Shown: one piece after another, positions 2,296 through 55,618 of the stretch
Layout of the letters: every line of letters starts with the position of its first letter
How positions within the stretch are numbered: position 1 is the first letter of the stretch
NCBI GenBank assembly: GCA_951406725.2
Contig: OX597814.1
Location: 82,460,001 to 82,524,000 of the forward strand
DNA length: 64,000 nucleotides
Direction: 5' to 3'
DNA from: Octopus vulgaris
Taxonomy: Eukaryota
The notes under the pieces: model-generated
What the model saw: only the letters and a program-made list of their open reading frames with translations
The model's database searches: none
What the model was told of the DNA's origin: nothing
Made by a program: the position numbers and the translations under genes

Positions 2296-5200
2296 CTAAA
2301 AAAAAAATAAAAAAAATAAAAAAAACCACATAAATCTCTGTTGAGTGGTTTTGAAAAGAAGTGAGAAATGTATCTTCATTCTTTCAAGTCACACATATAC
2401 TCCTGAAAATTATACTGTTTATTATTGAGTTTAAATCCTACAGAAATCAAGCTTTGCCTGTCATTCCTCCAGGACTGGTAAAATAAAACACTACTTGGAT
2501 AGACGATATCAACTAACACCTTCCCTCAAAATTATTGGCCTCATGCCTAAATTGTTATCATCATTGTCATCATGATCACAGAAGTTCAAATCCTGTTGTA
2601 GTCAACTTTGTTTTTCATTTTTCTGAAGTCAATAAAATAAGTATCATTCAATTCACTGCTAAGAAAGTTCACCATGAGGGAAGTTTACCAAGAAAATATA
2701 TCCATAGTACCTCACCATTAATAGTTAATCTATTTTATAGCATAAAAAGCAAACAAAAAAAAAAACAACAAAAAAAACCAACAAAAAAAAACGGTGTATT
2801 GATGACGCTGAACTTTAACTTTTCCTGTAGTGAACTGATGATGGTGAACTTTCCCTGTGGTGAATTGATGACAGTGAACTTAGTGGGCATGTCTTTTCAG
2901 GATTGATAGAATAAAGTATCTGTCAAGCACTAGGGATTGAGTAATTGACTGTATGCTCCCCTTAAAACTAATGGTCTGGTGCCAAAATTAGAAAGAGCTA
3001 TAATAATACTTATTTCTATAGTGGATGGAACATGTGGAAGAGGAAGACTTAGGAAGACATAGGATGAATTACTGAAGGATGACCTCCAGACACTGACCCT
3101 CTCACATGAGATGACAAAGGAACAAGATACCTGGCATCTTGCTGTACTCAAGAAGACCTGTCCTCCACAGCAGATGTGTTAAGGTCGCTACCCCTGGTGA
3201 AGAGGATTGGCCTGCAAGAGTTATGTGCCAATGCCATGTAAAAAGAATTTGTGCCAGTGTCACGTTAAAAACATTCAACAAACACTGTAAAGTGGTTGGC
3301 ATTAGGAAGGGCATCCAGTCACAGAAACCAAACCAGTCAGACTAGAACTTGGTGCAGCTCTCTAGCTTACCAGCTCTGGTCAAATCATTCAACCCATACT
3401 AGCATGGGAAATGGATGTTAAGAGATTATTATTATTGTTGTTATTATTATTATTATTATTCAGTAGTTTTATTTTTATAGCGTGCTTTCACTTCACTACC
3501 GAGTGCAGCTTTGTGTGCCTTGGGTATGTGCTGTGATTTGTTGTGATGCTCTGATGGTTATTGTATGGAAAGTGTTCTGTGTAGGATGTGTGCAGTGCCT
3601 AGTAGTGCAATTTTCTGTATGTTATATGTGTTTGTAAGTCCTGGTGTTTTTGTTATGTATTTGTCTGAATATTTTTTTATCATGCCTAATGCACCTACTA
3701 TGATAGGAATTGTTTCTGTTTTCAGATTCCACATTCTAGTTACCTCTATTTCCAGGTCTTTGTATTTTGAGAGTTTCTCCATTTCTTTTAGAGACACGTT
3801 GTCATCTGCCGGTATTGATACATCAATTAGAAAGCGTTTTTTTCTTCATGATCTCTGACAACTATATCTGGTCTGTTGGCCTTAATTTCTCTATCTGTGT
3901 GTATCGGCATATCCCAGAGTATGGTTGCTTTCTCGTTTTCTGTGACCTTTTCTGGTGTGTGCCTATACCATCTTTTTCTGTTGTTATTCCATAATGTTGG
4001 CATAGCTTCCAATGTATGTAGGTTCCAACTCTGTCATGTCTGTGAATATATTCCTTCTTAGCCAGGACTGGGCAGCTAGAGATAATATGATTTATTGTTT
4101 CTTGTCCATCTCCACATATTCTGCAGTTACTTGTTATATTTCTTTTCATTACATGTTTTTGGCAATTTCTGGTGGGGAGGCTTTGGTCTTGTGCTGCAAT
4201 TAAAAATCCCTCTGTTTCTGCTTTGAGTCCTGAGCTTCTCAACCATTGCTGGGATTTTTCTTTGTCTATTTCTTTTGCGTTTAGTTTAGTCCAGTATTTA
4301 CCATGAAGGGGCTTTTCTTGCCATCGTTTTATCATGGTTCGTTGCTGTTCTATTTTTAGTTTGGATTTCATTTGTTTTATAGCTTTTGTTGTTTCTTCAT
4401 CTTCTTCTTCTTCTTCATATTTATTAGGTGGTATGATTTCTTGTTTGTATTTGTCAGCTTCCTTAAATACTGAGAACAGTATTTTGTTTTGCTCGTGTTT
4501 TGCCGCTATTTGTATCAGTCTTCCTTCCTTCTGAAGGAGATATTTTTGCAGTCCTATGGTGGTTATTTTATAGTAGTTTTCCAGCTGTATAAGGCCTCTA
4601 CCACCTTCTATACATTGTATATATAGTCTTTCTATGTCAGATTTTGGGTGATGCATCCTAGATCCTGTCATTATTTTTCTTGTTTTCCTATCTATTTTGG
4701 TCAGTTCATTTCGTGTCCAGTTAAGGATATTGTAGCTGTAACTTATAACTGGGACAGCTAAAGTGTTAATACCTATTATCTTGTTTTTAGCATTGAGCTC
4801 TGTTTTTAGTATTGATCTAACTCGTTTATAATATTCTTTTTTTATTTTCTCTTTCATTTGTGTGTGTTGTGTCTTATCTAGTTCATGGATTCCTAAGTAT
4901 TTGTAAGTTTGGCTTTGGTCTAATTCTTTTATTTCATTGGTTTTATCTAGTGTGATGTTGCTACTCTTAACTAGTTTTCCTCTTTTCATGGTTACTTTGG
5001 CGCATTTTTCTAATCCAAATTTCATATCTATTTCTTTGGTAAATCCATGAACTGTCTTTAATAGTGTTTCCAGCTGTTTGTCATTTGCAGCGTATAGTTT
5101 TAGGTCATCCATATATAAAAGGTGGCTGATCGTTTTGCCGTAACATTTATATCCGCATCCAGTTCTATTTAGTATATCAGATAGAGGTGACCGTGCCAAG

Positions 5201-6732
5201 CAGAAAAGGAGTGGAGAGAGTGTGTCTCCCTGGAATATTCCTCTTCTAATGGGGATGTCTTTGGTTTTCATGAGTCCCTCTTTTGTTTGGAGGTGTAGGA
5301 CTGTTTGCCATTTATTCATAGAGTGCTCTATGAATTTTATGATTGTTGGTGCTACTTTGTTAATGGCTAGTGTTTCGAGGATCCATGTGTGGGGGATGCT
5401 ATCAAACGCCTTTTTGTAGTCAATCCAGGCCATACTGAGGCCTTTCTTCTTTCTGTGGCTGTCTTCAGTTATGGCTTTATTAATCATTAGTTGATCTTTA
5501 CAGCCATATGAGCCTTTGCGGCATCCTTTCTGCTCTTCTGGGAACAGTTTGTTTTCGTCCAGGTGCTTGTTCAACCTTTGCGATATCACTGCAGTAAATG
5601 CCTTGAACATTGTAGGGAGGCAGGTTATTGGTCTGTAGTTTTCTGGTTTTGCTGTCTCATTTGATTTGGGAATTAAGATGGTTTTCCCCTTCGTGAGCCA
5701 TTCAGGCATTGTCTCTGGCTCTGCTAGTATGCTGTTAAAGTTTTCAGCCAGCTTTTTGTGCATTCCTGTTAGATATTTCAACCAGAAGTTGGGGATCTTG
5801 TCATGCCCAGGTGCCTTCCAGTTGCTTAGTCTTTGCAGTGCCTGGGTGACCTCTTCAGTTGTTATGGGGGTCCAAAGTTGTTCAGATGCCGAGTTTGTTA
5901 TTTTGATACTCCTTTTTTTGGTTGTTCGTTCACCGACCATATTTCTCTCCAGAATTCTTCCAATTCTTCTGCCGTTGGTGCTGCAGTGACTTCTATTTTA
6001 TTTTTGCCAAGTTCTTGGTAGAACTTTTGGGGTTGGAGTTGAACTTTTTGTTTTGTTCAAAGAAGCGCTGGCGTTTCTCGTACCGGCGGATCCTTTGTGC
6101 TTTGGCAAGGATATCTTGCTTCAGCAAATCTTTCTCTGTGATGTTATATTTGTGGAGTATTTTTGTTTTCTTTTTGTTGCTCAGTAGCGTTGATTGTTTG
6201 CTGATTTCATTAAGAATCGACAGATCTTTTCTCATTTTTTGTATTTTGTTTTGGATGTTATTTATCCACAGGGTTTGTTTGGGTGGTGGTACTCCTGTTT
6301 ATTATTATTATTATTATTATTATTATTGGCAAGCTGGTAAAATGCTTAGTGGTATTTCGCCTGAAGCTAGCTTCTGAGTTTAAATTCCACTGAGGTCAAC
6401 TATGCTTTTCAACCTTTTGGGGTTGATAAATTAGGTACCAGTGAAACACTGGGGTTAATGTACTCGACTAGTACCCTCCCCCCAAATTTGGAGCCTTGTG
6501 CCTTCAATAAAAAGGATTATTATTATTATTATTGGTGAGCTGTAGAATTGTTAGCATGCTGGATGAAATGCTTAGCGGCAATTCACCAGTTACTATGTTG
6601 AGTTCAAATTCTGCCAAGGTTGACTTTGCCTTTCATCCTTTCAGGGTGGATAAATTAAGTACCAGTTAAACACTGGGGTTGATGTAATTGACTAATACCC
6701 TCCCACAAGATTTCAGGCCTTCAGTAGAAAGG

Positions 6733-6789
<57 letters not shown>

Positions 6790-9700
6790 GTTTAGGTAGC
6801 AAGCTGGCAGAATCATTAGCATGCTGGGCGAAATGCTGCTAAGCATTTTGTCTGTCTTCGAGTTCAAATTCTGTCAAGGTCAACTTTGCTTTTCTTCTTT
6901 TTAGGATTGATGAAATAAGTACCAGTCAAGCACTGGGATCAGTATAAACAACTAGCGCTCACCCTTCAAAATTGCTTGCCTTATGTCAAAAATTAGAAAG
7001 TATTATTATTATTATTAAAGCAAAGAGTTGGCAGAATCATTAGTACGCTGGGCAAAATGCTTAGCAGTATTTCACTCATCTTAACAAATTCTGCCGAGGT
7101 CAATTTAGCCTTTCATCCTTTAGGGCCCAATGAAATAAGTACCAGTTACATACTGAGGTTGATATAATCAACAATCCACCTCTCCCGAAATTTCAGTCCT
7201 TATGCCTATAGTTGAAAGGATCATTATTATTATTATCATTATTGACATGATGATGGCTCACTTGCATCTAATGAGGCTGCAAAGAGAGAGACTTGGAGAT
7301 GCCACTATGAAAGGTTGCTAAATGAAGAAAATGGGAGAAAGAGAGTCTGCCAAATGTTGACCCAACAGAGGGACCAGCTATCTGAATTGACAGTACTTTG
7401 GTAGATAAAGCAATTAAAGGCGTGAAAACAGGAAAAGCCCCTGGACCATAGGTAATCACCACAGAGATGCTTAAAATATCTGGCAGTGTAGGTTATAGTG
7501 TAGTTGCCCATATAGTCAATCAGGAGATACATGAAGGAGTCATGCACAATGACTGGTGTAGCGGCACCATGGTCAAGTGCTACAAAGGTAAAGGTGACGC
7601 ATTAGATATGAATAATTACAGAGGTATCAAGTTGTTGGACCTGGTGATGAAAGTCATGGAGAGGGTCATAGCCCAACTAATTAGGGAGAGAGTTAGTTTA
7701 GATGAGAGGCAGTTTGGGTTTGTACAAGGGAGAAGCACATCTGATGCTATATTTCTGGTAAGACAGCTGCAAGAGAAATACTTAGCCAAAGATGAACCTC
7801 TGTACTTGGCTTACATTGACATGGAGAAAGCCTTTGACAGGGTCCCCCGATCCCTTATCAAGTGGTCAATGTGGAAACTAGGGATAGATGAATGGTAAGT
7901 GAGAGCTGTACAAACCATGTACAGGGATGCTGTCAGTAAGGTGAGGGTTGGCAGCGAGTATAGCGAAGAATTCTGGGTAGGGGTAGAGGTCTACCAAGGA
8001 TCAGTCCTCAGCCCCCTTTTTATTCATCATAGTCCTCCTGGCAATAACAGAGGAATTCAAGACAGGATGCTCCTGGGAGTTCCTCTATGCTGATGACCTT
8101 GCTTTAATTACTGAGTCACTATCAGAACTAGAGGAGAAGCTTCAGATGTGGAAGCAAGGATTAGAATTGAACGGCCTTGGAGTCAATCTAGCAATAACCA
8201 AAGTCTTTGGTAGAAACTCCATAAGATGTACCCAGTGTAAGCTTTGGACACATAAAAAGTGCAGCAATATCAAAGGAAGGCTAACTAGGAAGATAGTATT
8301 TGTATGTCACAAATGCTCAGGTGCTATAAACACTGAAAATGTGTGGAAAACAGCTTCCATCAATATGCCAGGGGGGAAAACTAGATGTAGTTGATAGCTT
8401 CCATTACCTAGGTGACCAAGTCAGTAGCAGGGGCAGATGCTCTGAGAGTGTAGCTGCTAGAATAAGAATAGCCTGGGCAAAGTTCAGAGAGCTCCTACCT
8501 CTGTTGGACCGAAAGGTAGCCTGTACGACACGTGTGCGAACAGTCATGCTTCACAGCAGTGAAATATGGGCTGAGACTGCTGAGGACATTCGTAAGCTTG
8601 CAAAAAAATGAAGCCAGTATGCTCTGCTGGATGTGTAATATCAGTGTGCATACACGACAGAGTGTAAGTTCCCTGAGAGAAAAGTTGGACATACGAAATA
8701 ATATTTACCAGAGACAAATATAATTCACAGGGAATGAAAGAGAGTTTATCTAAAATGAAGACTGAGATAGAGGAATGAATCTGTGGAGCAGTTGCTCAAC
8801 TAATAAGACCCCTTTTTCAGGCATAGCATTAAGGGAGAAAAATTTGGTGATGTCTGTTTCAGATCAACTTGATCATACTGAGTTAACCCTTTAGTTTTCA
8901 GATTATTCTATTAAGCATATCCTTTATTTATTTAAATTGTTTTGAATTACTCATGTATTATCCCATAGCTTCAAGATTTTAATGATGTGGTAGTTTATTT
9001 TTAGAATGATATTGTAGGGTAAGTGTGAGAGGCCAGATCTGGCCTGTTTGAACATAAAGTAAGGAGAATATTTTGGTCTGATATGGCTGGTTTAAATGCT
9101 AAAGGGTTAAAGAAAAACACAACAACAATCCCACCAAAAAAAAAAAAAAAAAGCAATGATGAAGCCAGAAAGAAAACTTTGTTTCTGTGACAACCAGTGA
9201 GTGGACAACACAGTCACTCAGTAACAAGGAAGAATGTGTAAAAAATATCTATGCAATGTTATGCATTCCAGAATCATGAAACTTCCAATCAGAGATGTAC
9301 TTAGCATTCAGAAAGAAGAAGAAAAAATGGTTATAGGAACAGGCATGGCTCTGTGATAATAAGTTTGTTTCCCAACCACATGATTCCAGGTTCAGTCACA
9401 CTGCATGACACCTTGGGCAAATGTCTTCTATAATCTCAAGCCACTAAAGCCTTGTGAGTGGATTTGGTAGAAGGAAACTGAAAAAAACTTGTCATATATA
9501 CATTTATATGTATATATATGCATGTGTTGCTTTTGTTTTTGACTTTGCCCCCCCCCCCCCCAACAAGCTGAAAACTGGCATTGGTTTGTTTATGTCCCTA
9601 AAACTTGGTTCAGTAAAAAGACCAATAGTATAAGTACTAAGCTTTAAAAAAAAGAAAAAACAAAAGTACTTGGCAGTAGTTTTTCCTTCTGTATTGCATA

Positions 9701-12700
9701 GATACTCTCTTGCCATTCTTGCTATTAAAAAATACAGTGATTCAGTGACTGACTTGTTGGAAATCTATAACCACTAGTGCCACTGCTCACAAAAACCAAA
9801 AGGCAGTGGAGTGACGTAAACAAAATGCCTTGAACTATTTAACTAAACTTTTCTTGGTTTTCATTTTTTTATGCTTTAGCCAAAAGAGGAAGGGCAGAGC
9901 ATATGACCTTTTTTAGGTTTTCCAAGATTGGGTGAGAGGAGGGGAAGAAGTTTGCAGACTAAAGACATGATCTGAATGCTTGCAACAGATTGGAATCTGC
10001 TAAAACCAGAGGAGAGGTAGGTGGTGGTGTTAAGCCAGACATCAGAGTAATTCCACCACCTATTCTAAATTCAGATATTGTCAGAGTTAACTTTCCATTT
10101 CAAGAGTGATGCTCCTTATTGTGTCCCATATTTCTGATTTTTGCTTTGTAAAAGTGCCTGTGTGGTGCTACATAAAAGCATCTATGCAGTGCCACATAAA
10201 AGCACCCAGCACACTTCATAAAGCGGTTGATATTAGGAAGGGCATCCAGCTGAAGAAACCATGACAAATTAGACTGGTGTCAGGTGGAGCTCTCCAGCTC
10301 TGGCCAAACCATCCAACCCATGCCAGCATGGACAATGGACATTAAATGTTGATAATGATGGTAATTTTACCAGGTTTGGTAAAATAAGTGCACTTACATA
10401 AACATATAGGTATGTGGGTATTTTGAAAATAACTCAAGGGGTGATGACTGTGCCCAGCATAGTTATGGGTTGTCCTTTGGCAAGGCATAACACCCATTCA
10501 GCCACCCTGCCAGGGATATAGCAGATTGGCAGATGTGATGAGGCAGTATAAGAGCTCAACTGAACCAACAGTGCTTCCTACATTGATGTTGAGCAGAGGA
10601 ATCCTAGAAGGTCAACGGTCAGGATCACCCAGGTCTATCAAGAGAGTAACTGCAACACATCCATTGTTGTGTAATCAGCTGATGAAAGACTCGTGATTCA
10701 AGCTTCCAATTCAAATATGAATAGTAGAACTGGGTAGCAACAGGGAGTCATGGGAATCTGTGCAAGCAGCACAACCAAGCTATATAAACATACAAGCAAA
10801 AACATGCACACATCCACACATGCATATACATGCATGCAAGCACAGGCAGTTTGTTTAATTCAAACTTTGAAGATTTTATTTTATGAATAGGATGTAAAAG
10901 AAAAGTAACAACAAACCTTTGAAAGAGATCTAATTCCAAAGGGAGACAAGAATTCTGTCTCACTGAATAGGTAACCCAGAATATGTTGGAGCTGTTCAGA
11001 AGAAACGAATGATAAAAATAGCTTGTTGTTGTCGATATGCACCTAAAAGAAAAGAAAAGAAAGCAATGAAGCAGCTGCAGCCATAGACTTTGAATGAAAC
11101 GGATATCTGGAGATAATTGATATATTAACCCTTTCATTACCAAGCTGGCTGAAACTGGCTCTGGCTCTGAGTACAAATGTCTTGTTTTCGTAAGTTTTGA
11201 ATTAAAATCTTCCACCAAACCTTAGTTACAATTTATGTTCCTAACACTAGCTGAATGATAATTAAGTTATTTTACTAAATTCTTTGTTATATTTAAAGTA
11301 ATTGAAAGAAACACAGAACATTTCAAAATAAATATAATAATGAAAGGGTTAACAGCTATTGTTATGGTTTAACTCCAGGTCAAGCATAATCAAGGAGACG
11401 TGTGATCAAAAGTATTCCAGTTGTAACCAACCTGTTTTTCTCTTTTTAAGCTCAGATTACATTGTCGAATTTCTCCCTTTCGTTTTTGTTTTATTAAAGA
11501 TGGTGAGATTTGGCTACTATCTTTAGCAAGTTCAGTGACATCATAGTATTTCCTTCATTGACTCATGTTGATGTACTTGTAGTGTATAGTGGTAACAACC
11601 TGGGTTGGCAAGATGCAGTGGTATTGTATGTAGTTGTAACTGCATACATTAGTGGAATGATGAAGAGGTAGTAATTATTGTTGTCTTACCCTAGGTCAGT
11701 CTTGATACAGCAGACCATTCCAACTGTGACCATACCACCTTTTATTCAGACATAGAATTATATTATCTAATGTACTCATCCTTTTTAAGTTTGGTAAAAA
11801 TATGATGTACGGGTGATTTAGCTGCTATTACTAGAAGTTGAGGGACTATGTAAAGACTTCCTAGTAGTAGGCAATGGTAATGGTAAAAGATGAAATATAT
11901 ATCAATTAATCAATGCAGTGTAGTAAGATGGCAGTGGTGGTAGTGGTTGTTAGTGTTGTTTTGTCCTAGATCAGCCTTAACAGAACAGATTTATGACTAA
12001 AAGCATGACCATCGCATTCCTTTTTTTTAAAGGGAGATTTAGCAACTGTTTCTCTCAGGGAAAGTGACCATTTAAAGGCTGTATGAAGTGTAGTGATAGG
12101 TGTATCCAATAGAGATACAGTGTAGATGCAGCTGTAGTTGTGTAACCACAGGTCAGCTCTGATCAAGCAGTCCTGTTGTATGTAGAAAGTTGATCAAACT
12201 ACCAGGCATGAACCACAAGTCTTAGTTATGCCATTATACCATGTGTCTACCTAGCTGAGGACAATAGAGCTTGCTCTGATACATAGTGACAAAATGTATG
12301 AGGTGCTGCAGCGTTGATAGCCTGGACATATTGCACTCAAACTACTATCAAGTTAATTTCTATATGCTTAGAAATTCTGGTGGTGGTTACAGTGGAAGTA
12401 GGCAAAATGGACTTGGTTAGACTATGAAAGTTGCTATTCCTCTGCTCTAATTGTTTCTGTTTTAGACTAGGGAAGCTATTCATGCCACAGCTACTTCTGG
12501 TGTGTCTGTGTTTTTTATGTTTGTCTAGGTCAGTGGTTCTCAACCATTTTGTCCCAGTGGACCCATTTCATTGCTATTTTACTCAGTGGGTGGGATTCTC
12601 AAAAACATTCGATATCAAAAACTCCTATTATACTTTTGTGATTAAATATTATTAGGAATTGTATACAAAATTGTTTAAATATTTTGTGTATAACCAGCAC

Positions 12701-13266
12701 ATAAGTTGCAAATAATATAACCATCTTATCTATATATATAAAACTGAGAATGTGTGTGTGTCTGTCTGTTACCATTCTGTTGATATGCTTATGTCTTTTT
12801 CTTGGGATGTCTACTGTATCAGGAATTTAACCCACATGGATATACATAGGATTGCACCTAAAGACTTACGCTCATGGATCTATGTAGGATTGCACCTAGG
12901 GATTCATTCTTTGGTTTCTATAACTTTGGAAAGTTGAACTATAAACTTCTTTGCTTCTGTCTCCTTCTCTCTTTCCATCTCCTTATTCTTTTACTCCCTT
13001 CCTCAATGTTGTCAGTGATGTATAGCATTCTCATTTTCTATATCTTTTTTTTCTCAATTTGTCTCTGATGACAGAATATCCCATACCTGGGGATATCCCA
13101 GAAAGAGCTGTAAGATTTTAAATTCCTTCCTGTAACAATATTGTATATGACTTGAGATGTTTGCTTTACCATAATGTTTGATGCCCTGTTTAACAATTAT
13201 ATATATATATATCGATATGTAGATATGTATATATTTGTGTGTGTGTATGTATATGTATGTGGGTGT

Positions 13267-13318
<52 letters not shown>

Positions 13319-13848
13319 TATTGGTGAATTGAAGAAATGGAGCTGAATGCAGATTGAACAGAAATCGTTTTATTTCATTCTACACGTGTTTCGAAAGGCA
13401 CAATTTACCAAAATCCGATTGAATAATGGGACCATATTGTGTCTTTCTCTTCAGGAAGAAATAGGAAATCCGTTGGAAAAAACAAAAACAGAACAGAGGC
13501 GGAGCAAAAACAAATCGAACTAGGCTCCTAAGAGCCCATGGCGAAACTGTTTATCAGTGTATGTTGAGAACCGGTGGCTGAAGAATTTAGCGGGTCAGGC
13601 ATCGGTCAATCATGTGGGTGAGGGTGTGTAGATGTTCTTTGTGACCGAGAATAAAGTTCTGACTATTTAAGGAATATTGGATGTTTTATAAGGGGCGAGA
13701 AAAAATCTACTTAGAGACGTGTGTGTGTATACTGTTCTATATATGTGTGTGCTGGCGTAGGGGTAGAAAACATTTTTTGTGTACGTGTGTGCGTTTGATC
13801 GTTCGGCTGTCAGTGGCTACTGCAGTGAGAACCGTTGGGTGGCAGAGG

Positions 13849-13882
<34 letters not shown>

Positions 13883-14633
13883 TATTATGTTTTATGTGTG
13901 TGTGTGTTCATCTAAGCCTGCCTTGTCAGGGAAACCCCCGTTGTGAAAGAACCAAGCCCCGTTTATCTTACAGGAGTAATTCCCCTTGCAGTGGTTAATT
14001 GTAGATATCTTAAAGGCTATTTCAGAATTTGTTACCAAGGGCTATGGGTGCCGGTATTATTTATAAACGCTATTTAAAAGCCAGATAAGTGTAACGCCGC
14101 CAATGAAATAAAACATCCAATATTCCTTAAATAGTCAGAACTTTATTCTCGGTCACAAAGAACATCTACACACCCTCACCCACATGATTGACCGATGCCT
14201 GACCCGCTAAATTCTTCAGCCACCGGTTCTCAACATACACTGATAAACAGTTTCGCCATGGGCTCTTAGGAGCCTAGTTCGATTTGTTTTTGCTCCGCCT
14301 CTGTTCTGTTTTTGTTTTTTCCAACGGATTTCCTATTTCTTCCTGAAGAGAAAGACACAATATGGTCCCATTATTCAATCGGATTTTGGTAAATTGTGCC
14401 TTTCGAAACACGTGTAGAATGAAAGAAACGATTTCTGTTCAATCTGCGTTCAGCTCCATTTCTTCAATTCACCAATAATATTTTAATTTCAATTATGTCG
14501 ATACCAACGCACGGTTGCAACACCATATGGTTGTACCTCCAACCGTGCTGTTTACTGCTGTGATTTTTGCTACCAAGGTATCGGTTAAACTTTTGATTAA
14601 TCTACTACAAGATTATTCATCTTTCTATTTCAC

Positions 14634-14682
<49 letters not shown>

Positions 14683-15261
14683 CAATGAAATTAGACATTA
14701 ATACAGTACAATAATTACAATCAATATGGTGAGATATAACTAAATAAATATAACAAGATATAAAAATACATTTACATTATAACTGACAGCTATTTCGGCC
14801 ATTAAGATAGGTATGTCTCATTTAACCTATTAGCCATATATTGCAGGTATAAATGAGACATTAACAAGAATATATTACGGCCTCTTCGGAGATTCTAATG
14901 CAAGTATGAGTACAAACCCTAAAATAATTTACATATAAATATGAATATGAGTGCATACATACTCATATTCTTACATACATATACATATACACAATAATAC
15001 AATATAAACAATATAAATCAATATACATCAACAAACACAATAATGTTCCATATTGAATGCCACAGCTCCTCAACCAAAATCAAGAAACCACAACAGACAC
15101 ACTCACACTCAATGCAGGAATATATATTAAACAGTTCAATATATTAAAATGTGTCACTTCACAAAAAGCCAATAAAGTTAATACCACCACCATAGTACCA
15201 TTCAAGGCAAATGGATAGATATATGTTATCCCATGGAGGGTTGAATTTACAACCCCTATCT

Positions 15262-15303
<42 letters not shown>

Positions 15304-15326
15304 GTGTGTGTGTGTGTGTATATATA

Positions 15327-15365
<39 letters not shown>

Positions 15366-15405
15366 TATGTATATATATATATATATGTATATATATATGT
15401 ATATG

Positions 15406-15436
<31 letters not shown>

Positions 15437-15457
15437 GTATATGTATATATATATATG

Positions 15458-15504
<47 letters not shown>

Positions 15505-17105
15505 ATGTATATATATATACATATCATCATCATCATCATCATCATCATTTAGCGTCCGTTTTCCATGCTAGCATGGGTTAGACGGTTCAACGCCAACCAC
15601 TCCGAGAGTGTAGTGGGTGATTTTATGTGCCACCGACACAGGTGCCAGACGAGGCTGGCGAACGGCCACGCTTGGATGGTGTTTTTATGTGCCACCGACA
15701 CAGGTGCCAGACGAGGCTGGCAGACGGCCACGCTCGGATGGTGTTTTTATGTGCCACCGACACAGGTGCCAGATGAGGCTGGCGGACGGCCACGATCGGA
15801 TGGTGTTTGTTACGTCCCCAAAGCACAGAGGCCAGTCTATGCGGTACTGGCTACGGCCACGTTCGGATGATTTTCTTGTGTGCCACCGGCACTGGTACCA
15901 CAAAGATACAAATTCCATTGATGTTCATCTATTTTGATTTGTTTTGATTTGATTTGATTTTCACTTGCCTCAACAGGTCTTCACAAGTGTCACAAGAAGG
16001 AAGGTATGCACAGGTGGACTGACTACGTCCCAGGTAGGGGCCACGGGTTATGGCCTGACTAGTCTTGCCGGGTCTTCGGATGGTGTTTTTATGTGCCACC
16101 GACACAGGTGCCAGATGAGGCTGGCGAACGGCCACGATCGGATGGTGTTTGTTATGTGCCCACAGCATGGAGGCCAGTCGATGCGGTACTGGCTACGGCC
16201 ACGTTTGGATGGTTTTCTTGTGTGCCACCGGCACTGGTACCACAAAGATACAAATTCCATTGATGTTCATCTATTTTGATTTGATTTGATTTGATTTTCA
16301 CTTGCCTCAACAGGTCTTCACAAGTGTCACAAGAAGGAAGGAAGGTATGCACAGGTGGACTGACTACGTCCCAAGTAGGGGCCACGGGTTATGGCCTGAC
16401 TAGTCTTGCCGGGTCTTCGGTTGGTGTTTTTATGTGCCACTGACACAGGTGCCAGATGAGGCTGGCGAACGGCCACGATCGGATGGTGTTTGTTATGTGC
16501 CCACATCACAGAGGCCAGTCGATGCGGTACTGGCTACGGCCACGTTCGGATGGTTTTCTTGTGTGCCACCGGTACTGGTACCACAAAGATACAAATTCCA
16601 TTGATGTTCATCTATTTTGATTTGGTTTGATTTGATTTGATTTGATTTTCACTTGCCTCAACAAGTCTACACAAGTGTCACACACTTGCCTCAACAGGTC
16701 TTCACAAGTGTCATAAGTAGGAAGGTATGCACAGGTGGACTGACTACGTCGCCGGGTCTTCGGATGGTGTTTTTATGTGCCACCGACACAGGTGCCAGAT
16801 GAGGCTGGCAAACGGCCACGATCAGATGGTGTTTGTTGTGCCCACAGCACGGAGGCCAGTCGATGCGGTACTGGCTACGGCCACGTTCGGATGGTTTTCT
16901 TGTGTGCCACCGGTACTGGAACCACAAAGATACAAATTCCATTGATGTTCATCTATTTTGATTTGGTTTGATTTTTACTTGCCTCAACAGGTCTTCACAA
17001 GTGTCACACGTGTCACACACTTGCCTCAACAGGTCTCCACAAGTGTCACACACTTGCCTCTGCCTCAACAGGTCTTCACAAAGTGTCACACACTTGCCTT
17101 TGTAT

Positions 17106-17136
<31 letters not shown>

Positions 17137-18495
17137 CTTTATTTTAAGCAGCAGAAAATTCAACAAAATCTGTTACTCTGAGTTTCTCGTTGCCGTTCAT
17201 CAGACAGTTTTTGCTAGAATGGAACATATATATTAATTCAATCTATACTCTTACAAACACTACACCTTTAAAAAGAAATGGACTTGTTTGATTGGCCCTT
17301 TAGAAAAAACGGTCAATCTTCGAGCGATAAACAAAAAGGTCAAAAATATATGTATATATATATATAAAAACTTATAAAAATTATAAAATCCGAGGAAAAT
17401 ACCGAGGAAAAAACCTGTTGCCGTTAATGAAGACAGTACAAATTAATGCATAGAAATTAAACCTGTTATAAATACTGCAATACATATTTATATTAAAATC
17501 CACATATATATATCAACATACACAAAAGGATGCGCGTAAACGCCATACATACACATACAGACGTATGAATATGAATCTAAATTATACACATAAAAGCATG
17601 TGTACATATATTCACGCAAACCGTCTCGCACTTGCGTGCGAGACGGTTTGCGTGAATATATGTACACATGCTTTTATGTGTATAATTTAGATTCATATTC
17701 ATACGTCTGTATGTGTATGTATGGCGTTTACGCGCATCCTTTTGTGTATGTTGATATATATATGTGGATTTTAATATAAATATGTATTGCAGTATTTATA
17801 ACAGGTTTAATTTCTATGCATTAATTTGTACTGTCTTCATTAACGGAACATTTTTCCTCGGTATTTTCCTCGGATTTTATAATTTTTATAAGTTTTTATA
17901 TATATATATACATATATTTTTGACCTTTTGTTTATCGCTCGAAGATTGACCGTTTTTTCTAAAGGGCCAATCAAACAAGTCCATTTCTTTTTAAAGGTGT
18001 AGCGTTTGTAAGAGTATAGATTGAATTAATATATATGTTCCATTCTAGCAAAAACTGTCTGATGAACGGCAACGAAACTCAGAGTAACAGATTTTGTTGA
18101 ATTTTCTGCTGCTTAAAATAAAGCATATTACTCTACCACTGGTATCTTGATGTTGTAACATTGTAATTGCCGTATAAACTGTTGTTTGAATATAAGCCAG
18201 TGTTGCCAGTTGTTGCCTTGCCTCTTTGGGTTGTATCTCGGGTTGTGCCTCTGTATCTCTGTGCTGTTGAGGTTGTGGCAGTATCTATCTGTATCTCCTC
18301 TCTCCGCCTCTTTGGGTTCCGTGGCGGAACTAGTGAGTGTGCGAGCCGTTCGGGACGAGCGACGACGGGCGATTCCAGTCCGTTCCGTAACAATATATAG
18401 CCGTATATATATATTATATATATATATAGCCTATATATCACATATATAGTATATATATACCCATAGCATGGATATATACGGATATAACGATGATA

Positions 18496-18562
<67 letters not shown>

Positions 18563-21500
18563 TATATATATGTAATATGTATATATATTTGACAGCCAAA
18601 TGTGGAGTCCTGTATGGAACAGTGCTATTGATGTTTATAGCCCCACGAAGACATCTCTTCCAGCTAGCTAATGATACACATTCCGATTAGTATTTGCGAG
18701 GGGAAGTCATCGCTTCTATCCCTAGCCTTACATGATACACATGGACTCAAGTTCCTGGGTGGTTACCCGCACTCAACGTATGCTAATCACCAGCTAGTGA
18801 TGGAAACTCACCCCACTCACAAAATATTATATGCTTTTTCCAGCTAGTGATTAACACATGCTGAAGAAGGGTAACCACCCAGAAACTCGAGTCCTTCATC
18901 ATCATCATCATCATTGTTTAATGTCCACCTTCCATGCTGGCATGGGTTTGACTGAGGACTGGTGAGCCAGATGGCTGCACCAGGCTCAGTCTGATCTGGC
19001 AAAGTTTCTACAGCTGGATGCCCTTCCTAACGCCAACCACTCCAAGAGTGTAGTGGGTGCTTTCACATGCCACTGGCATGAGGGCCAGTCAGGTGGTTCT
19101 GGCAACAACCACGCTCAAAAGGTGTTTTTTACGTGCTACCTGTATGGGAGCCAGAAATGTTGTTTCTCACGTGCCACCAGCACATGTCCCAGTAAGGTGA
19201 TGCTGGCAATGATCACACTTGAATGGTGCTTTTTACATGCCACTGGCACAGGAGCCAATCCATGGCCCTGGCAATTATCACGTTCAGATGTGCTTTTAAT
19301 GATCCACTGGCATGAGTGCCAATCAGGCAGTACTGTCATTGGCCACATCAGCAATTTTGATTTCACTTGCCTCAATAGGTCTTTGCAAGCAAAGTTTATT
19401 GTCCAATGAATAAGGGGTACTCATAAGTGGACTCATTACACCCACTGGCATAGGCCATGGGCTATGGTCTCATTTGGCTTGTCAGGTCTTCTCAAGCACA
19501 GCATATCTCCAAAAGTTTCAGTCACTAGTCATTGCCTCAGTAAGGCCCAATGTTCGAAGGTCATGCTTTACCACCTCATCCCAGGTCTTCCTGAGTCTAC
19601 CTCTTCCACAGGTTCCCTCAACTGTTAGGGTGTGACACTTTTTCACACAGCTGTGCTTATTCATTCCCAACACATGACCATATCTGCACAGTCATCTATC
19701 TTGCACACCACATCTGATGTTTCTTAAATCCAACTTTTCTCTCAAGGTGCTTACATCCAGCATAACATACTGGCTTCATTCCTTGCAAGCTTATGCATGT
19801 CCTCAGCAGTCACAACCCATGTTTCACTGCGATGTAGCATGGCTGTTTGTACACATATGTCATACAGTCTACATTTTATTCTGAGCGAGAGGCCTTTTGT
19901 CACCAGCAGAGGTAGGAGATCTCTGAACTTTGCCCAGGCTATTCTTATTCTCGCAGCTACATTTTTAGAGCATTCACCCCTGCTACAGACTTGGTCACCT
20001 AGGTAACGGAAGCTATCAACTACTAGTTTTTCACCCTGGAATGTGGCAGAAGCTGTTCTCTGCACATTTTCATTGTTTATAGTACCTAAGCATTTGTCGC
20101 ATACAAAAACTATCTTCCTTTGATATTGCTGCACCTCTTATGTGTCCATAGCTTACACTAGGTACATATTATGGTGTTTCTACCTATGCCTTTTCTAAAG
20201 ATCGAGCAGGGCAATTTACTTGAAGGGATTTGTGATTTGTTTGCCTTCCTACTTATTAAGACTTTGATTTTAGCTAAGTTGACTCCAAAGCCCTTCGATT
20301 CTAATTCTTGCTTCCACGCCTGCAACTTTTCCTCTAGTTCTGACAGTGACTCAGCAATTAAAGCAAGGTCATCAGCATAGAGGAGCTCCTGGGAGCATCC
20401 TGTCTTGAATTCTTCTGTTATTGCCAGGAGGACTATGATGAATAAAAAGGGGGTTGAGGACTGATCCTTGGTGGACCCCTACCCCTACCAGAAATTCTTA
20501 CTGACAGCATCCCTGTACATGGCTTGTACAGCTCTCATTTACCATTCCTCTATCCCTAGTTTCCACATTGACCACCAGATAAGGGATCAGGGGACCCTGT
20601 CAAAGGCTTTCTCCATGTCAACAAAAGCCAGGTACAAAGGTTTATCTTTGGCTAGGTATTTTTCCTGCAGCTGTCTTACCAGAAATATAGCATCAGTGGT
20701 GCTTTTCCCTTGTACGAACCCAAATTGCATCTCGTCTAAACTGACTCTCTCCCTAATTACCTGATTCAACAACTTGATACTTCTGTAATTATTTGTATCT
20801 AAAGTGTCACCTTTACCTTTGTAGCAGTTGACTATCATGTTGCTACACCAGTCATTGGGTATGACTCCTTCGTGTATCACCTGGTTAACTATGCGGGTGA
20901 CTAGCTATAGCCGACACTGCCAGATATTTTGAGCATCTCTGCAGTAATTTCTGATGGGCTGGGGGCTTTCCCTGTCGTCATACTTTTAATTGCTTTATCT
21001 ACCAAGGTACTGTCAACTCGGATAACTGGTCCCTCTGTTGGGTCGACATTTGGCAGACTCTCCAAACCTCTCTCTTTGCATCCTCATTTGGCGTAAGTGA
21101 ACCATCATCCATGTGAACACATTTCTCTCCTACATCACAATTCTCTCTCACACACTGTCTTGCAACACGAAATACCTCAAGTCTTTGGTCTTCACGGCGC
21201 AGAACATTGGCAAAGTTTTTCTTATCTGCTTCCCCTCTGGTTAAATAAACCTGTCTCCTAGCTTCCCTTCAAGCAATCTGATACAATTCCCTGCTTCCAT
21301 CATTCTTCCAGTCCTTCCAAGCCTGTTTCTTTTCCTTAATGGCCCTGTCAACAACATTGTTCCACCACCACATTAACTTGGGTCAAGAGGGGACTTTGCA
21401 CCATCCGTAGATCTGGTCAGTGGCCCTCAGCAGGTTGTCCCATAAAAACTTCCAGTTGTCTTCCACATCATGTGATGCTATATCCCCCTCTATTTCATCA

Positions 21501-22566
21501 AAAGCTTTGAGTAATACGTCTCTAAATCTGTCCATTCGCAGGATCTTTAAGCTTCCAGACCCTTCTTCTCCATGCTGGTTGTCTTCTGGGCATCCACTTA
21601 GCCCTGATCCTGAAGTTGCTAACTACTAGTCTATGTTGTGGGGTACATTTTTCGCCTGGGAAGGTTTTGGCATTTATAAGCAGCGATCTTTCCTTTTTCC
21701 TGGCAAGGATGTAGTCAATTTGGCTAGTGTGCCTACCAGATCGGTAGGTGACTGGCAGGTTTCCTGAAGTTAGTATTGCAAACCATAAGATCATTTGTAT
21801 CACAGAACTCCAGCAGCCTGGTTCTCTCCATATTGTGGGAACCAAAACCATAACCTCCATGTATGCCATAGGAGCCCCCTGCATGTTGTCCAACATGTCC
21901 ATTGAAGTCACCAGCCACAAAGAGAAGGTCCTTGTCAATCGTCAATGAGGTAGTCTGCAAGAGGGTGTCATAAGATCGGTCTTTCTGTCCATCAGGTTTT
22001 CTGGGAAGAGTGGAATACAGTTTATCACAGGTCTGCTCTATCAGAAATGACCTGGGGATAAACAATAACAACTTAATGTTGGTATTAATAGTATCGTTTG
22101 TTAATTTAGTATATGTATAATGATAAGATTAATAGTAATATCTGTTATAGTAATACCATTTGTAACATTAGATAACAAAGATAATAATAATTTGTACCTT
22201 GCTACTGCTGCAAGAAGCATCACTCAGGACAACAAAAAGCTCAGGATAATTCATCCTTATTGATGAAAGATCAATAACAGTTGTAGCAAGCAAAGGAACA
22301 AGGCCTACTAGTGATCGTATGCAGAGTGGAATGATTGTGTCAGATTCTTGTGAAAGCAGCATATCATAGAAGAATTTATCGTCCTCATGCCAAAATCCTG
22401 GAAAAGTGAGAAAGTATTACAACTACAACAGACAGAGTAGTCTTAATGCTTCAAATACAAAACACTAATATGGCATGATTAAAAAATAACCAGTTCATAT
22501 CCATACTGTACTGCAAATGGTTGGTGATAGGAAGGGCATTAAGCTGTAAAAATCATGCACCCTCCT

Positions 22567-34400: not shown

Positions 34401-37400
34401 ACTCAAGACATAATGATGGATGAAATGCTACTAAGCATTTTACCTGGATTGCTAACAATTCTGTCAGCTTGCCACCTTATCAAACAATATTATAAATTAT
34501 GAAACATATACACAGATGAATACATTAGTGTGTGTGTGTGTGAGAGAGTGAATTTGATTTTTAGTGACAACCCTAGATATGTTTCAATCTAATTAAACCT
34601 CATCAGCAAAACATAGTCTAGCCACGACCACTTTATCGTAAAATGATTAGAGAGATTATAGAATTTTTGAGAATGAACTGAATGGTGTTATACATTTAAA
34701 TGCACTCACAAGGCTTTGGTCGGCCTGAGGCTATAATAGAAGATACTTGCCCAAGGTACCATGCAGTGGGACTGAACCTGGACCCATGTGGTTGGGAAGC
34801 AAGCTTCTAACCACACAGCCATGTTATTTTTTACTTATTTCAGTCATTAGACTGCAGCCATGCTGGGGCACCACCTTGAATCTTTAGTCAAATTAATTGA
34901 CCCCAGTACTTATTTTTTTTTAAGACTGGTACTTATTCTATCAATCTCTTAACCACTCCAAGAGTGTAGTGGGGGCATTTTATGTGCTACCGGCACGAGG
35001 GCCAGTCAGGCGGTTCTGGCAATGACCACACTCACAGTCAAAAGGTGTTTTACATGCTACCTGCGCAGGAGCCAGTCTGGCGGCACTGGCAACAACCATG
35101 CTTGAATGTTGTTTTCACGTGCCAACAACACATGTGCTGGTTAGGCAACGCTGGCTATGATCATGCTTGAATGGTGCCTTTCACATGTCACCAAACAGGA
35201 GTCATTGCCTCAGTAAGGCCCAATGTTCAAAGGTCGTGCTTCACCACCTCATCCCAGGTCTTCTTGGGTCTACCTCTTCCACAGGTTCCCTCAACTGCTA
35301 GGGTGGTACACTTTTCCTCTAGTTCTGATAGTGACTCAGCAATTAGAGCATGGTCATCAGCATAGAGGAGCTCCAAGGGGCATCCTGTCTTGAATTCCTC
35401 TGTTATTGCCTGGAGCACTATAAGAGGAGGCTGAGGACTGATCCTTGGTGGACCCCTACCTCAACTCAGAATTCTTCAGTGTACTCATTGCTAACCCTCA
35501 CCTTACTGACAGTATCCCTGTACATGGCTTGCACAGCTCTCACTAACCATTCAGCTATCCCTAGTTTCCTCATTGACCACCAGATAAGGGATTAGGGGAC
35601 CCTGTCAAAGGCTTTCTCCATGTCAATGAAAGCCAGGTATAGAGGTTTATCTTTGGCTAGGTATTTCTCCTGCAGCTGTCTTACCAGCAATAATGCATCA
35701 GTGGTGCTTTTCCTTTGTACGAACCCAAACTGCATCTCATCTAAACTGACTCTCTCCCTAATTAGTTGGGCTATGACCCTCTCTGTGACCTTCATTATCT
35801 AATCCAACAACTTGATATCTCTGTAATTATTTGTATCTGGAGCATTACAAATACATACACACACAGACACATACATTACATACATACACACACACACACA
35901 ACACACACAATATATACACATACACACAATGAGTTTCTTTCAGTTTCCGTCTACCAAATCCACTCACATGGCTTTGGTTGGCCCAAGGCAGTAGTAGAAG
36001 ATACTTCCCCAGGGTACTATGCAGTGGGACTGAACCCATAACCATGTGGTTGGGAAGGAAGCTTCTTACCACACAGCCACCCTGTTTTCAATTATCAATG
36101 AGTCCTGAGGTTTCATTTTCCAAAGAATAAAAATCCTTACAAGCAGATATATCAGAGACATTTTTTTTTACCTGAACGTATAATAGTTGATTCTATCCAT
36201 TTACGAACATCATAACAATAAAACTGTTTGGACCAGAGGAGACCAGAGTATGCTTGACAGGCAATATTTCTTTCTTCTTCAGTCCAAGAGGGACTTAATA
36301 TCTAACAAAAGATAAATACAGTTCCTTTAAAATTTTAAAATTAATTTTGTAGACACAACATGAATAAATCATATTATATGATTTCAATAAAAATACAAAA
36401 AAACATAAAATTCTTCTTCTTCAAGTAGCCACAGCTGAGATGTGTTTTACCACAGCAAGACTACGTTTCTCATTAGTTTTGATAGGTTCTCAATTTTATG
36501 GTGAGTGTCTCTCTCTGCCAATAACATCTATGTCACAGCTCAGCACAATAGCAGTGGTTAGCAAAACTTATTTCCTTGAGCAACATTAGTAGAGATGAGT
36601 GGAATATCTCCATAAAACTTCTCTTTCATCTTGTACTCATGCCATGACATGTTTTAAACCTTCATGAGAAACCTGGTGTAAGCCTAAGTGAAAGTGCAAG
36701 GTTTAGTGGTTAGGGGATTCAGGTCATGATCATAGGGTCATAAGTTTGACTCCTGGTGGTGCGTTGTGTCCTTAAGCAAGACACTTTATTTTATGTTGCC
36801 CCTGTCCACTCAGCTGGCAAAAATGAGTAGTACCTGTATTTCAAAGGACCAGCCTTGTCACACTCTGTGCCACAGTGAATCTTCCTTAGAACTACATTAA
36901 GAGTATACGTGTCCGTGGAGAGCTCAGCCACTTGCACATTAATTTCAGGAGCAGGCTGTTCTGTTGATCAGATTAACTGAAACCCTTGTTGTTGTAACCG
37001 ACAGAGTGCTAGTTATACAATCTAAGTGATCTTGAAGATTCTCCTTCATAATCCTGGTTTTGACTCCATAAAGAGGAATGCTCTCAATATAAAATAAAGT
37101 AGCATAGTTCTTTAATATGGCTACCAGATATATAGTGATATGAAGGATATCCAACAATGAATGACTACATCAAATTTAGATACTATTGTATTCAAAATGT
37201 TTACTTCATTTCACAAATGTTAATGCAGTATTCATATTGTTGTGTTCATAATATTACCAAAGTATTTGACAGTACAGCTAGTAAAGTGACATAGTATAAT
37301 TCTTGGATCTTAACAACTATAATTGACATCTAATTTGATCTGAGTACACAAAAAAATCATATCATAGTATGGATGCTGGAAAAGTGAAGCTATGTCCTGA

Positions 37401-54800: not shown

Positions 54801-55618
54801 TTTGTGTGTATGTATGTATATACGTATGTATATGTGTGCATGCGTGTGTATGTATGTATATGTGTATATCTATGTCTATGTATGTATATGTGTATATCTA
54901 TGTCTATATACACACATATATATATATATATAGACGCAGACCCAGGAAAACCTGGGACGAGGTGGTGAAGCACGACCTTCGAACTTTAGGTCTCACTAAG
55001 GAAATGACTAGAGACCGAGACCTCTGGAAGTGTGCTGTGCGCGAGAAGACCTGGCAGGACAAGTGAGTCCATAACCCGTGTATGCATACCTTCCCTTCTT
55101 GGGACACAAAACTCTACTTGTGAAGACCTGTTGAGGCAAGTGAGGATCAGAATCGAAATTGATCAATGGAAATTGCAGATGTGTTACCAGTGCCGGTGGC
55201 ATGTAAGAGAACCATCCATTGGCGACCGTTGCCAGCGCCGCCCCGACTGGCCTCGTGCCGGTGGCACGTAAAAAGCACCATCCGTTCGTGTCCGTTGCCA
55301 GCCTCGCCTGGTCCCCGTGCCGGTAGCACATTAAAAGCACCATCCGTTCGTGGCCGTTTGCCAGCTCTGTCTGGCACCTGTGCGGGTGGCACGTAAAAAG
55401 CACCCACTACACTCACGGAGTGGTTGGCGTTAGGAAGGGCATCCAACCATAGAAACACTGCCAGATCTGACTGGGCCTGATGAAGCCTTCTGACTTCACA
55501 GACCCCAGTTGAACCGTCCAACCCATGCTAGCATGGAAAATGGACGCTAAATGATGATGATGATGATATATATATATATATATATATATATTTGTGTGTG
55601 TGTATGTATATATATATG

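Follow-up and report, generated by a model that had tools for sequence, protein, structure and literature searches.

Two likely Penelope-like copies joined head-to-head in an octopus intron, with hammerhead motifs predicted to be muted by pairing of the inverted arms

In a 64-kb stretch of the Octopus vulgaris genome (the window, contig OX597814.1), positions 13311-14636 are highly probably occupied by two 5'-truncated copies of a high-copy repeat, set head-to-head in an intronic (TA)n tract, likely by one insertion event of an EN-bearing Penelope-like element (PLE), whose hammerhead would work only as a dimer and would be muted at this locus. Both copies have their 3' ends outward, one at a tail-less family end and the other at a tail end 151 bp further (Table 1).

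Table 1. Coordinates of the element, its hammerhead motifs and the host intron in the window
Feature	Position	Strand	Evidence or remarks
Left (TA)n tract	13269-13312		TRF, 22 units, 100%; part of the likely target site
Longer copy, 5'-truncated, 797 bp	13311-14107	-	Upstream non-coding part and arm; tail-less 3' end at 13311
Left arm, pLTR-like, 379 bp	13311-13689	-	Inverted-repeat alignment
Left type I hammerhead motif	13371-13463	-	C3 13454, stem II 13447-13393, G12 13392, stem III palindrome 13389-13382, A17 13381
Family sequence upstream of the arm (former "spacer")	13690-14107	-	Internal (TG)n/A18/(TA)n microsatellites at 13846-13907, of variable length
Putative two-base AA filler at the inversion junction	14106-14107		X2 contigs diverge after 14105; arm match begins at 14108
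Shorter inverted copy, 529 bp	14108-14636	+	Arm and tail
Right type I hammerhead motif	14336-14424	+	C3 14343, stem II 14350-14404, G12 14405, stem III palindrome 14408-14415, A17 14416
One-sided tail, 151 bp, predicted branched hairpin	14486-14636	+	Folding versus shuffles
Right (TA)n tract	14637-14681		TRF, 22.5 units
Host intron, ~11.1 kb, YMR196W-like glycoside-hydrolase-63-type gene	11043-22188	-	tblastn of P0121

The left arm (13311-13689, 379 bp) and the inverted right arm (14108-14485, 378 bp) are identical in 376 of 379 aligned columns and enclose 418 bp (13690-14107). They differ by two mismatches (13348/14448 and 13372/14425) and a single indel near 13368, and the right copy extends 151 bp past the end of its arm (14486-14636), the left one having no such tail. 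An earlier interpretation made from the letters of the window (the sequence-only reading) had described arms of 379 and 378 bp with about three differences, (TA)n tracts on both sides and a one-sided extension of about 150 bp, and each of these was recovered, the tracts by TRF. It had also called the element young, and the 0.8% divergence of the arms supports a recent insertion, with the caveat that homogenisation may have kept them alike. The three arm differences are confined to the outer 62 bp, on the 3' side of the predicted cleavage site, and the inner 317 bp are identical; the post hoc probability of this clustering is about 0.006, and two templates, or homogenised inner arms, could be its cause. 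The arm repeat forms one locus only in the window, where repeat detection and self-comparison found no tandem or direct arm copy. A target-site duplication is unreadable within (TA)n, and no empty-site joint across the element appears among the 15 of 107 joints listed, for which microsatellites were skipped. The predicted fold of the tail is stable for its composition (z = -3.5, with 1 of 200 shuffles equally stable).

The repeat family was followed in contigs from four public runs aligned to the stretch (X1, X2, X4 and X13, of which X13 is only guessed to be RNA); a wastewater run, X20 (share 0.16), was left out. The stretch is present in 20 of the 24 listed runs, 19 of them under five organism codes with shares of 0.45-0.72. 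Summed contig depth in X1 reaches 1.2e5-1.2e6 in 16 of 17 element bins, versus 33-52 for the listed long contigs, the lone exceptional bin being the central microsatellite, and X2 and X4 show a like contrast (three to four orders above the listed long contigs). This depth, a rough sign and not a copy number, points to a dispersed family of thousands of copies, and the flanks of the element consist of older repeats at lower depth. A 3'-to-5' depth gradient (clear in X4, weak in X1 and X2) was left unused because depth is flat per contig.

These contigs change the meaning of the 418 bp between the arms, which the sequence-only reading had given as a non-coding spacer: the length stands, but the segment is the upstream part of the longer left copy rather than a neutral spacer. 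Both its halves are as deep as the arm, with high depth in all four runs, and an X13 contig of 358 nt spanning 13628-14003 crosses the boundary with the left arm and the central microsatellite; the left junction is inside a family contig, and the 418 bp therefore belong to the repeat family and continue the left arm. At the right junction, two X13 contigs end at 14075 and 14105 and seven X2 contigs leave the window sequence after 14105, family sequence upstream of this point being visible for 30 bases only. In four X2 contigs the family sequence gives way to (TA)n at 14481, which marks a second family 3' end without tail, matching the end of the left arm. The contig listing covers 24 of 1110 loose ends, 15 of 107 joints and 32 of 16,726 pieces, and none of the 32 listed pieces crosses 14105-14108 or spans the whole locus. 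The window differs from the X1 majority at nine listed sites within 13588-13965, two of which (13588 and 13590) lie in the arm and are common to both arms, and therefore go back to a single variant template or to homogenisation. In the tail, the window differs from the family contigs of all four runs at about six bases (14497-14502), and its version lengthens the basal stem of the predicted hairpin.

Each arm carries one hammerhead, facing outward and on opposite strands. The two intact cores, the stem II of 11 pairs in 12 and the palindromic stem III that the sequence-only reading had described were confirmed in both arms: each motif has CUGAAGA and GAAA, a GUA site, a stem II with one A.C among its 12 positions, and a stem III of 2 bp closed by an ACGU loop, together an 8-nt palindrome. 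GUA sites cleave in hammerheads. The type I features C3-A9, G12-A14, A15.1-U16.1, H17 and G10.1-C11.1 are present, with three stems and an open stem I. Stem I has 9 bp with one bulged U on the left and 7 contiguous pairs plus one bulged U on the right, where it is shorter because the arm difference 13372/14425 falls in it. Regarding a loop 1-loop 2 contact, inspection of the predicted fold found no terminal loop at the usual 4 bp in stem I, only an A.C mismatch after 5 bp and the bulged U. The stem II domain, including a further small hairpin, measures 55 nt, and stem II alone has z = -3.3; the whole 121-nt motif is not more stable than shuffles (z of -0.7 and -0.9).

A descriptor scan of both strands of the window returned exactly two hammerheads versus 0.03 expected per window (100 dinucleotide shuffles), and shuffle controls at the strict stem II setting gave no match; since the two are one sequence present twice, they count as one independent observation. 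The Rfam search returned no hammerhead at the gathering threshold or at E <= 5, and no twister or other credible family. Variation within the family touches no core position among the 40 of 230 substitutions and 12 of 79 indels listed, and one X13 loose end has A9 changed. The hammerhead pattern had no match in viral contigs, and 23 matches in metagenome contigs were taken as chance, none of them showing an extended stem II or, by blastn, any likeness to the element. A 60-base pyrimidine-rich tract (14283-14349, plus strand), mirrored in the left arm, runs into stem I and the core; since helix I is where an intron of the D. virilis Penelope ends (PMC4209133), the tract could by analogy be a splice acceptor.

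Whether these motifs can act was approached through folding, and all folding figures are thermodynamic predictions. As a monomer, the hammerhead fold has an ensemble probability of about 0.001 (right) or 0.015 (left) and lies 1-2 kcal/mol above the minimum free energy (MFE) in 121-nt constructs and 6-10 kcal/mol above it in whole single copies. For the left homodimer the hammerhead fold is the dimer MFE (-49.3 versus 2 x -18.2 kcal/mol, 12.9 below two monomers), and for the right homodimer it lies 2.0 kcal/mol above the dimer MFE; the rare monomer fold and the left dimer support the need for a dimer that the sequence-only reading had raised. When the whole element of 1326 nt is folded, on either strand, 74 of 74 motif bases are paired across the arms and it takes 122.8 kcal/mol to free them; without the antisense arm, freeing the hammerhead fold costs only 6-7 kcal/mol. 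Being on opposite strands, the two motifs cannot partner in cis. In read-through from either side the antisense arm is transcribed first, and this, with full arm-arm pairing, makes an active ribozyme at the locus unlikely. We judge the motif to be rather probably a competent ribozyme of its family and a hammerhead active at this locus to be very improbable: the model predicts cleavage only as a dimer, and muting here by arm-arm pairing. The description of the element as the best candidate for an active ribozyme in the window finds no support, as far as this locus goes, in these predictions, in which the motif is fully paired in the arm duplex and the monomer fold is rare (about 0.001-0.015). 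The construct proposed for cleavage assays (14320-14440) corresponds to the weaker copy (7 contiguous stem I pairs versus 9 pairs), which is antisense to the host gene.

This host gene was recognised from the frame 37951-38250, which matches YMR196W-like proteins of Octopus sinensis and O. bimaculoides. By tblastn, the O. sinensis protein (P0121) gave 17 ordered stretches on the minus strand, from 59103 to 1318, most exon cores being near identity; the DNA of the window accordingly stands close to O. sinensis. The flanking matches are at 22398-22189 (99%) and 11042-10917 (100%); no host-protein match falls between 22189 and 11042, and the element thus lies inside an intron of about 11.1 kb. 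The left hammerhead is sense to the host pre-mRNA and the right one antisense. The host protein carries Pfam PF03200/PF22422 according to its source, and the exon at 2295-1309 has a long E/R/K-rich low-complexity insert.

Cephalopods edit RNA heavily. At 13436-13459, two X13 contigs depart from the window in 4 of 24 positions, each time with G for A when read along the ribozyme strand; the bases concerned are core A9 and three adenosines of stem II. The cluster looks like ADAR editing, and a diverged copy is equally possible. A run-wide A-to-G excess was not seen in X13 over the whole stretch (A>G 16 and T>C 28, versus 17-20 and 32-36 in DNA runs). The X13 contigs differ from the window locus and so are not evidence of expression of the 13311-14636 copy.

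As expected of 5'-truncation, the copy contains no ORF, and it cannot move alone. Pfam found no GIY-YIG match in 196 window frames, six RVT_1 frames at least 4.9 kb from the element, and no match in the three element frames scanned, two of them in 13690-14107; six-frame translation of 13690-14107 and of the tail gave short frames only. A likeness to a GIY-YIG C-terminus in 13895-14041 was dropped for want of a Pfam match, as was a likeness to a Hydra N-terminus near 14110, which had no match and a motif order that, by eye, is not colinear with Hydra-1_Obim. From its structure the element is likely Penelope-like. It shows five structural features of EN+ PLEs, namely a hammerhead in a terminal repeat, an inverted 5'-truncated copy, a one-sided tail, multiple copies and a (TA)n target, together with their variable inversion point, the left junction being found in family contigs and the right one not being followed by the seven X2 contigs. 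The arms, tail and (TA)n flanks thus support the partial inverted pLTR architecture put forward by the sequence-only reading. The (TA)n target and the full hammerhead, common to both clades, suggest the Hydra or the Neptune clade. EN+ PLEs encode a telomerase-like RT and a GIY-YIG endonuclease, in which the clades differ: Hydra has RWK and DKT motifs, a CxCX5C linker and an EN without CCHH, Neptune CX2-5CxxC and CCHH. Other classes fit less well: Naiads lack a canonical hammerhead, and here the core is complete with three stems; retrozymes are head-to-tail tandem units with a hammerhead, an arrangement absent here; and a MITE or TIR element is at odds with the 151-bp overhang and with a right inner junction that family contigs do not follow. 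Four hammerhead motifs found no match in the supplement of PMC8557442, which offers Naiad, Chlamys and Hydra consensus sequences without Neptune or Penelope ones, and one 9-mer had two matches there, in unrelated GC-rich records. Penelope-like repeats make up 6.83% in O. vulgaris, in 190 families (supplement of PMC13282606), and the repeat library of that study, Repbase or Dfam may already contain the element's family.

Similar architectures have been described. For PLEs, these include an inverted 5'-truncated copy, a one-sided tail of 30-40 bp and a (TA)n bias (PMC8557442). In the Hydra clade, including one Octopus family, hammerheads are canonical, with a near-palindromic stem III and a stem II of 3-8 bp (PMC8557442). 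Elements of this clade, among them Hydra-1_Obim and Penelope-13_HM, resemble ours in the (TA)n target, an inverted 5'-truncated copy at the 5' end and a complete type I hammerhead lying no more than about 100-200 nt from the 3' end, and the clade is present in Octopus; Hydra-1_cRog and Penelope-17_HM share the near-palindromic stem III, of ACAC-GUGU type (PMC8557442). The octopus element departs from them by its stem II of 12 bp with a 31-nt structured loop, against 3-8 bp and short loops, by its sequence, which neither visual comparison nor motif search matched to Hydra-1_Obim, and by a much longer non-coding region. Neptune and Penelope/Poseidon PLEs (PMC4209133; PAc, PMC11167929; Pen1-6, PMC3846280) share with it a hammerhead in the terminal repeat, a palindromic helix III for dimers, a larger-than-usual helix II, opposite-strand pairs 100-700 bp apart and a head-to-head pLTR with optional tail. 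Such opposite-strand pairs, 100-700 bp apart, have a helix II of 7-8 bp and a palindromic helix III and show low activity even as dimers (PMC4209133); head-to-head inversions are documented in A. vaga Pen1-6 (PMC3846280), and dimers through a palindromic stem III are covered in PMC3088659 and PMC6765202. Compared with these PLEs, the octopus tail is 151 bp instead of 30-40 bp and helix II 12 bp instead of 6-8 bp, and, unlike min-HHRs, the motif has no bulged base between 9 and 10.1 and a stem I of 7-9 bp with a bulge rather than 4-5 bp.

A precedent for an expanded stem II exists in PLE-X1_sMoe of Selaginella (9 bp, loop of about 35 nt; PMC8557442 File S2), a plant, EN-minus and 28S rDNA-targeted element similar in the structure of its hammerhead. 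Naiads (Naiad_Ovul, Naiad_Obim) share the (TA)n target, inverted structures and presence in Octopus, but have no canonical hammerhead, carry an N-terminal EN and are described as old remnants in cephalopods; Naiad_Ovul is flagged "HHR_half_core", with halves 35-50 nt apart (all PMC8557442). The non-LTR retrozymes of animals (PMC7229834; bioRxiv 10.64898/2026.07.22.740005) are likewise non-coding and high-copy, with a type I hammerhead and a weak palindromic helix III; they are head-to-tail tandems of ~300-bp units, whereas the octopus locus is an inverted pair whose motifs are never both sense on one RNA. The inverted layout, opposite-strand pairs and larger-than-usual stem II were already in print (PMC8557442, PMC4209133). 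Slightly out of the ordinary, in an architecture that is itself known, are the stem II domain of 12 bp, the tail of 151 bp and the failure of Rfam to report the motif.

The window itself holds a second head-to-head element at 17132-18400, in the same intron and 2.5 kb away, with no homology to 13311-14636. Its arms (17132-17631 and 17636-18128; 493 aligned positions, 2 mismatches, 4 small indels) are separated by a 4-nt loop and carry outward hammerheads at 17174-17203 (-) and 18059-18086 (+), with a stem II of 1-2 bp and a stem III of 3 bp; it has a one-sided extension of ~270 bp and (TA)-rich tracts at 17103-17136 and 18404-18588. By eye, its hammerhead closely resembles Hydra-2_aMil of File S2 of PMC8557442. 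An unrelated element with the same layout at such short distance implies that the layout is common in the genome. A third hammerhead-like core (18861-18893, +), with a 4-bp stem II, a palindromic stem III and no stem I, runs into (CAT)n and is probably a decayed PLE end. Introns of the host gene also contain the frames 3865-5997 (-), 7452-8391 (+), 20161-20904 (-), 35595-35798 (-) and 53148-53819 (+), which comprise an uninterrupted non-LTR RT frame of 711 aa that includes zf-RVT, remnants of three more RTs and one of a mariner-type transposase; a search with the 3865-5997 frame assigned no taxon. A GC-richer repeat forms nested 62-bp and 341-bp tandem arrays at 15616-17008 and 55240-55404, directly behind a (TA)-rich tract at 15267-15524.

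How the pair may have arisen can be modelled on PAc, whose protein acts in vitro on both strands of AT-rich DNA, nicking and extending them, and whose RT starts at two internal sites, the interval between them being the tail (PMC11167929). By extension, the octopus element protein would nick both strands of its AT-rich target, and two cDNAs would be primed at two start sites of the element RNA, whose interval would become the tail; a tail that is predicted to fold well is in line with a structured RT start region. The cDNAs would stop after 797 and 529 nt and be joined head-to-head with the two-base filler. In a donor tandem transcript, or in trans, two motifs are predicted to pair through the 8-nt stem III palindrome and to cleave after A17. 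When the host gene is transcribed along the minus strand, the antisense arm would come first, the left motif would emerge into a 379-bp duplex and the pre-mRNA would stay uncut, the duplex presumably serving as a substrate for ADAR or small RNAs.

Several points weigh against this explanation. The element has no RT or GIY-YIG frame of its own, the four hammerhead motifs are without a match among the consensus sequences for Naiad, Chlamys and Hydra in PMC8557442, and the tail is four to five times as long as the published 30-40 bp. No target duplication is readable and no empty site is seen among the listed joints (15 of 107), no listed contig spans 14105-14108, and the hammerhead of PAc needed protein and was dispensable for insertion in vitro (PMC11167929). 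Upstream of the motif there are at least 650 non-coding nt, more than in the Hydra consensus sequences examined. This long stretch with its microsatellites, along with the very high contig depth, would also suit an amplified family that is itself a non-autonomous ORF-less PLE derivative (retrozyme- or SINE-like, more than 950 nt), inserted through the same two cDNAs by a PLE protein acting in trans and differing from our explanation only in what lies upstream of 14105. Non-LTR retrozymes have been reported as non-autonomous PLE derivatives (bioRxiv 10.64898/2026.07.22.740005), and Pen1_Av has captured host DNA beside its pLTR (PMC3846280). The locus has no tandem units, however, which are the defining trait of retrozymes, the family continues beyond 14105, and long 3' UTRs are compatible with an autonomous element; we regard this origin as possible, though somewhat unlikely.

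The other alternatives are far less probable. Long near-perfect inverted arms, a non-coding interior and TA flanks recall a DNA transposon of the MITE or foldback kind, non-autonomous and inserted at TA, whose terminal inverted repeats would be the 379-bp arms and whose hammerhead would be a captured passenger; we disfavour it as quite improbable, because the right repeat does not form the end of the element, contigs part from the window sequence at 14105 rather than entering the right arm, the family ends at both 14481 and ~14636, and a complete hammerhead lies near each outer end. Arms that are 99.2% identical and a right junction and locus uncrossed among the contigs listed (32 of 16,726 pieces) might also mean that assembly, or fold-back in long reads, turned a single repeat copy into a spurious inverted pair. 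The chance of this is slimmer still: each outer end falls on a family end at (TA)n, the tail is on one arm only, the loop is 418 bp, and the layout is published for PLEs and recurs in the unrelated family at 17132-18400. Least probable of all is that the left hammerhead works as a ribozyme within the intron, cutting the host pre-mRNA and tuning YMR196W-like expression. In its favour are the intact core, the 9-bp stem I, the sense orientation and a cost of only 6-7 kcal/mol to reach the fold in the absence of the antisense arm; against it, the antisense arm is transcribed first, opening the duplex takes 123 kcal/mol, stem III with its 2 bp depends on a second molecule, cleavage by metazoan PLE hammerheads is poor even in dimers (PMC4209133) and the insertion is young.

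Building on the preferred explanation of a muted PLE pair, we may speculate, though we hold it doubtful, that inversion is a built-in antisense mute for intronic PLE hammerheads, with ADAR editing, A9 included, as a second lock, and also that hammerheads with a 55-nt stem II form a class missed by Rfam and standard descriptors, so that some of the Naiad "half-core" motifs may be such ribozymes. Our search of the open-access literature found no paper on the family of the octopus element or on antisense muting or editing of intronic PLE hammerheads. If the antisense mute were true, inverted copies would be enriched over solo sense copies in octopus introns, and a single assembly with RNA-seq would allow a direct test of the predicted self-silencing of intronic inverted copies. 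For insertion in vitro, a PLE can dispense with its hammerhead (PMC11167929). The octopus family offers a test case, with a young, high-copy motif and an unusually large stem II, and with a structured tail of 151 nt separating its two 3' ends it would put the two-start-site model of the tail to the test at a larger scale.
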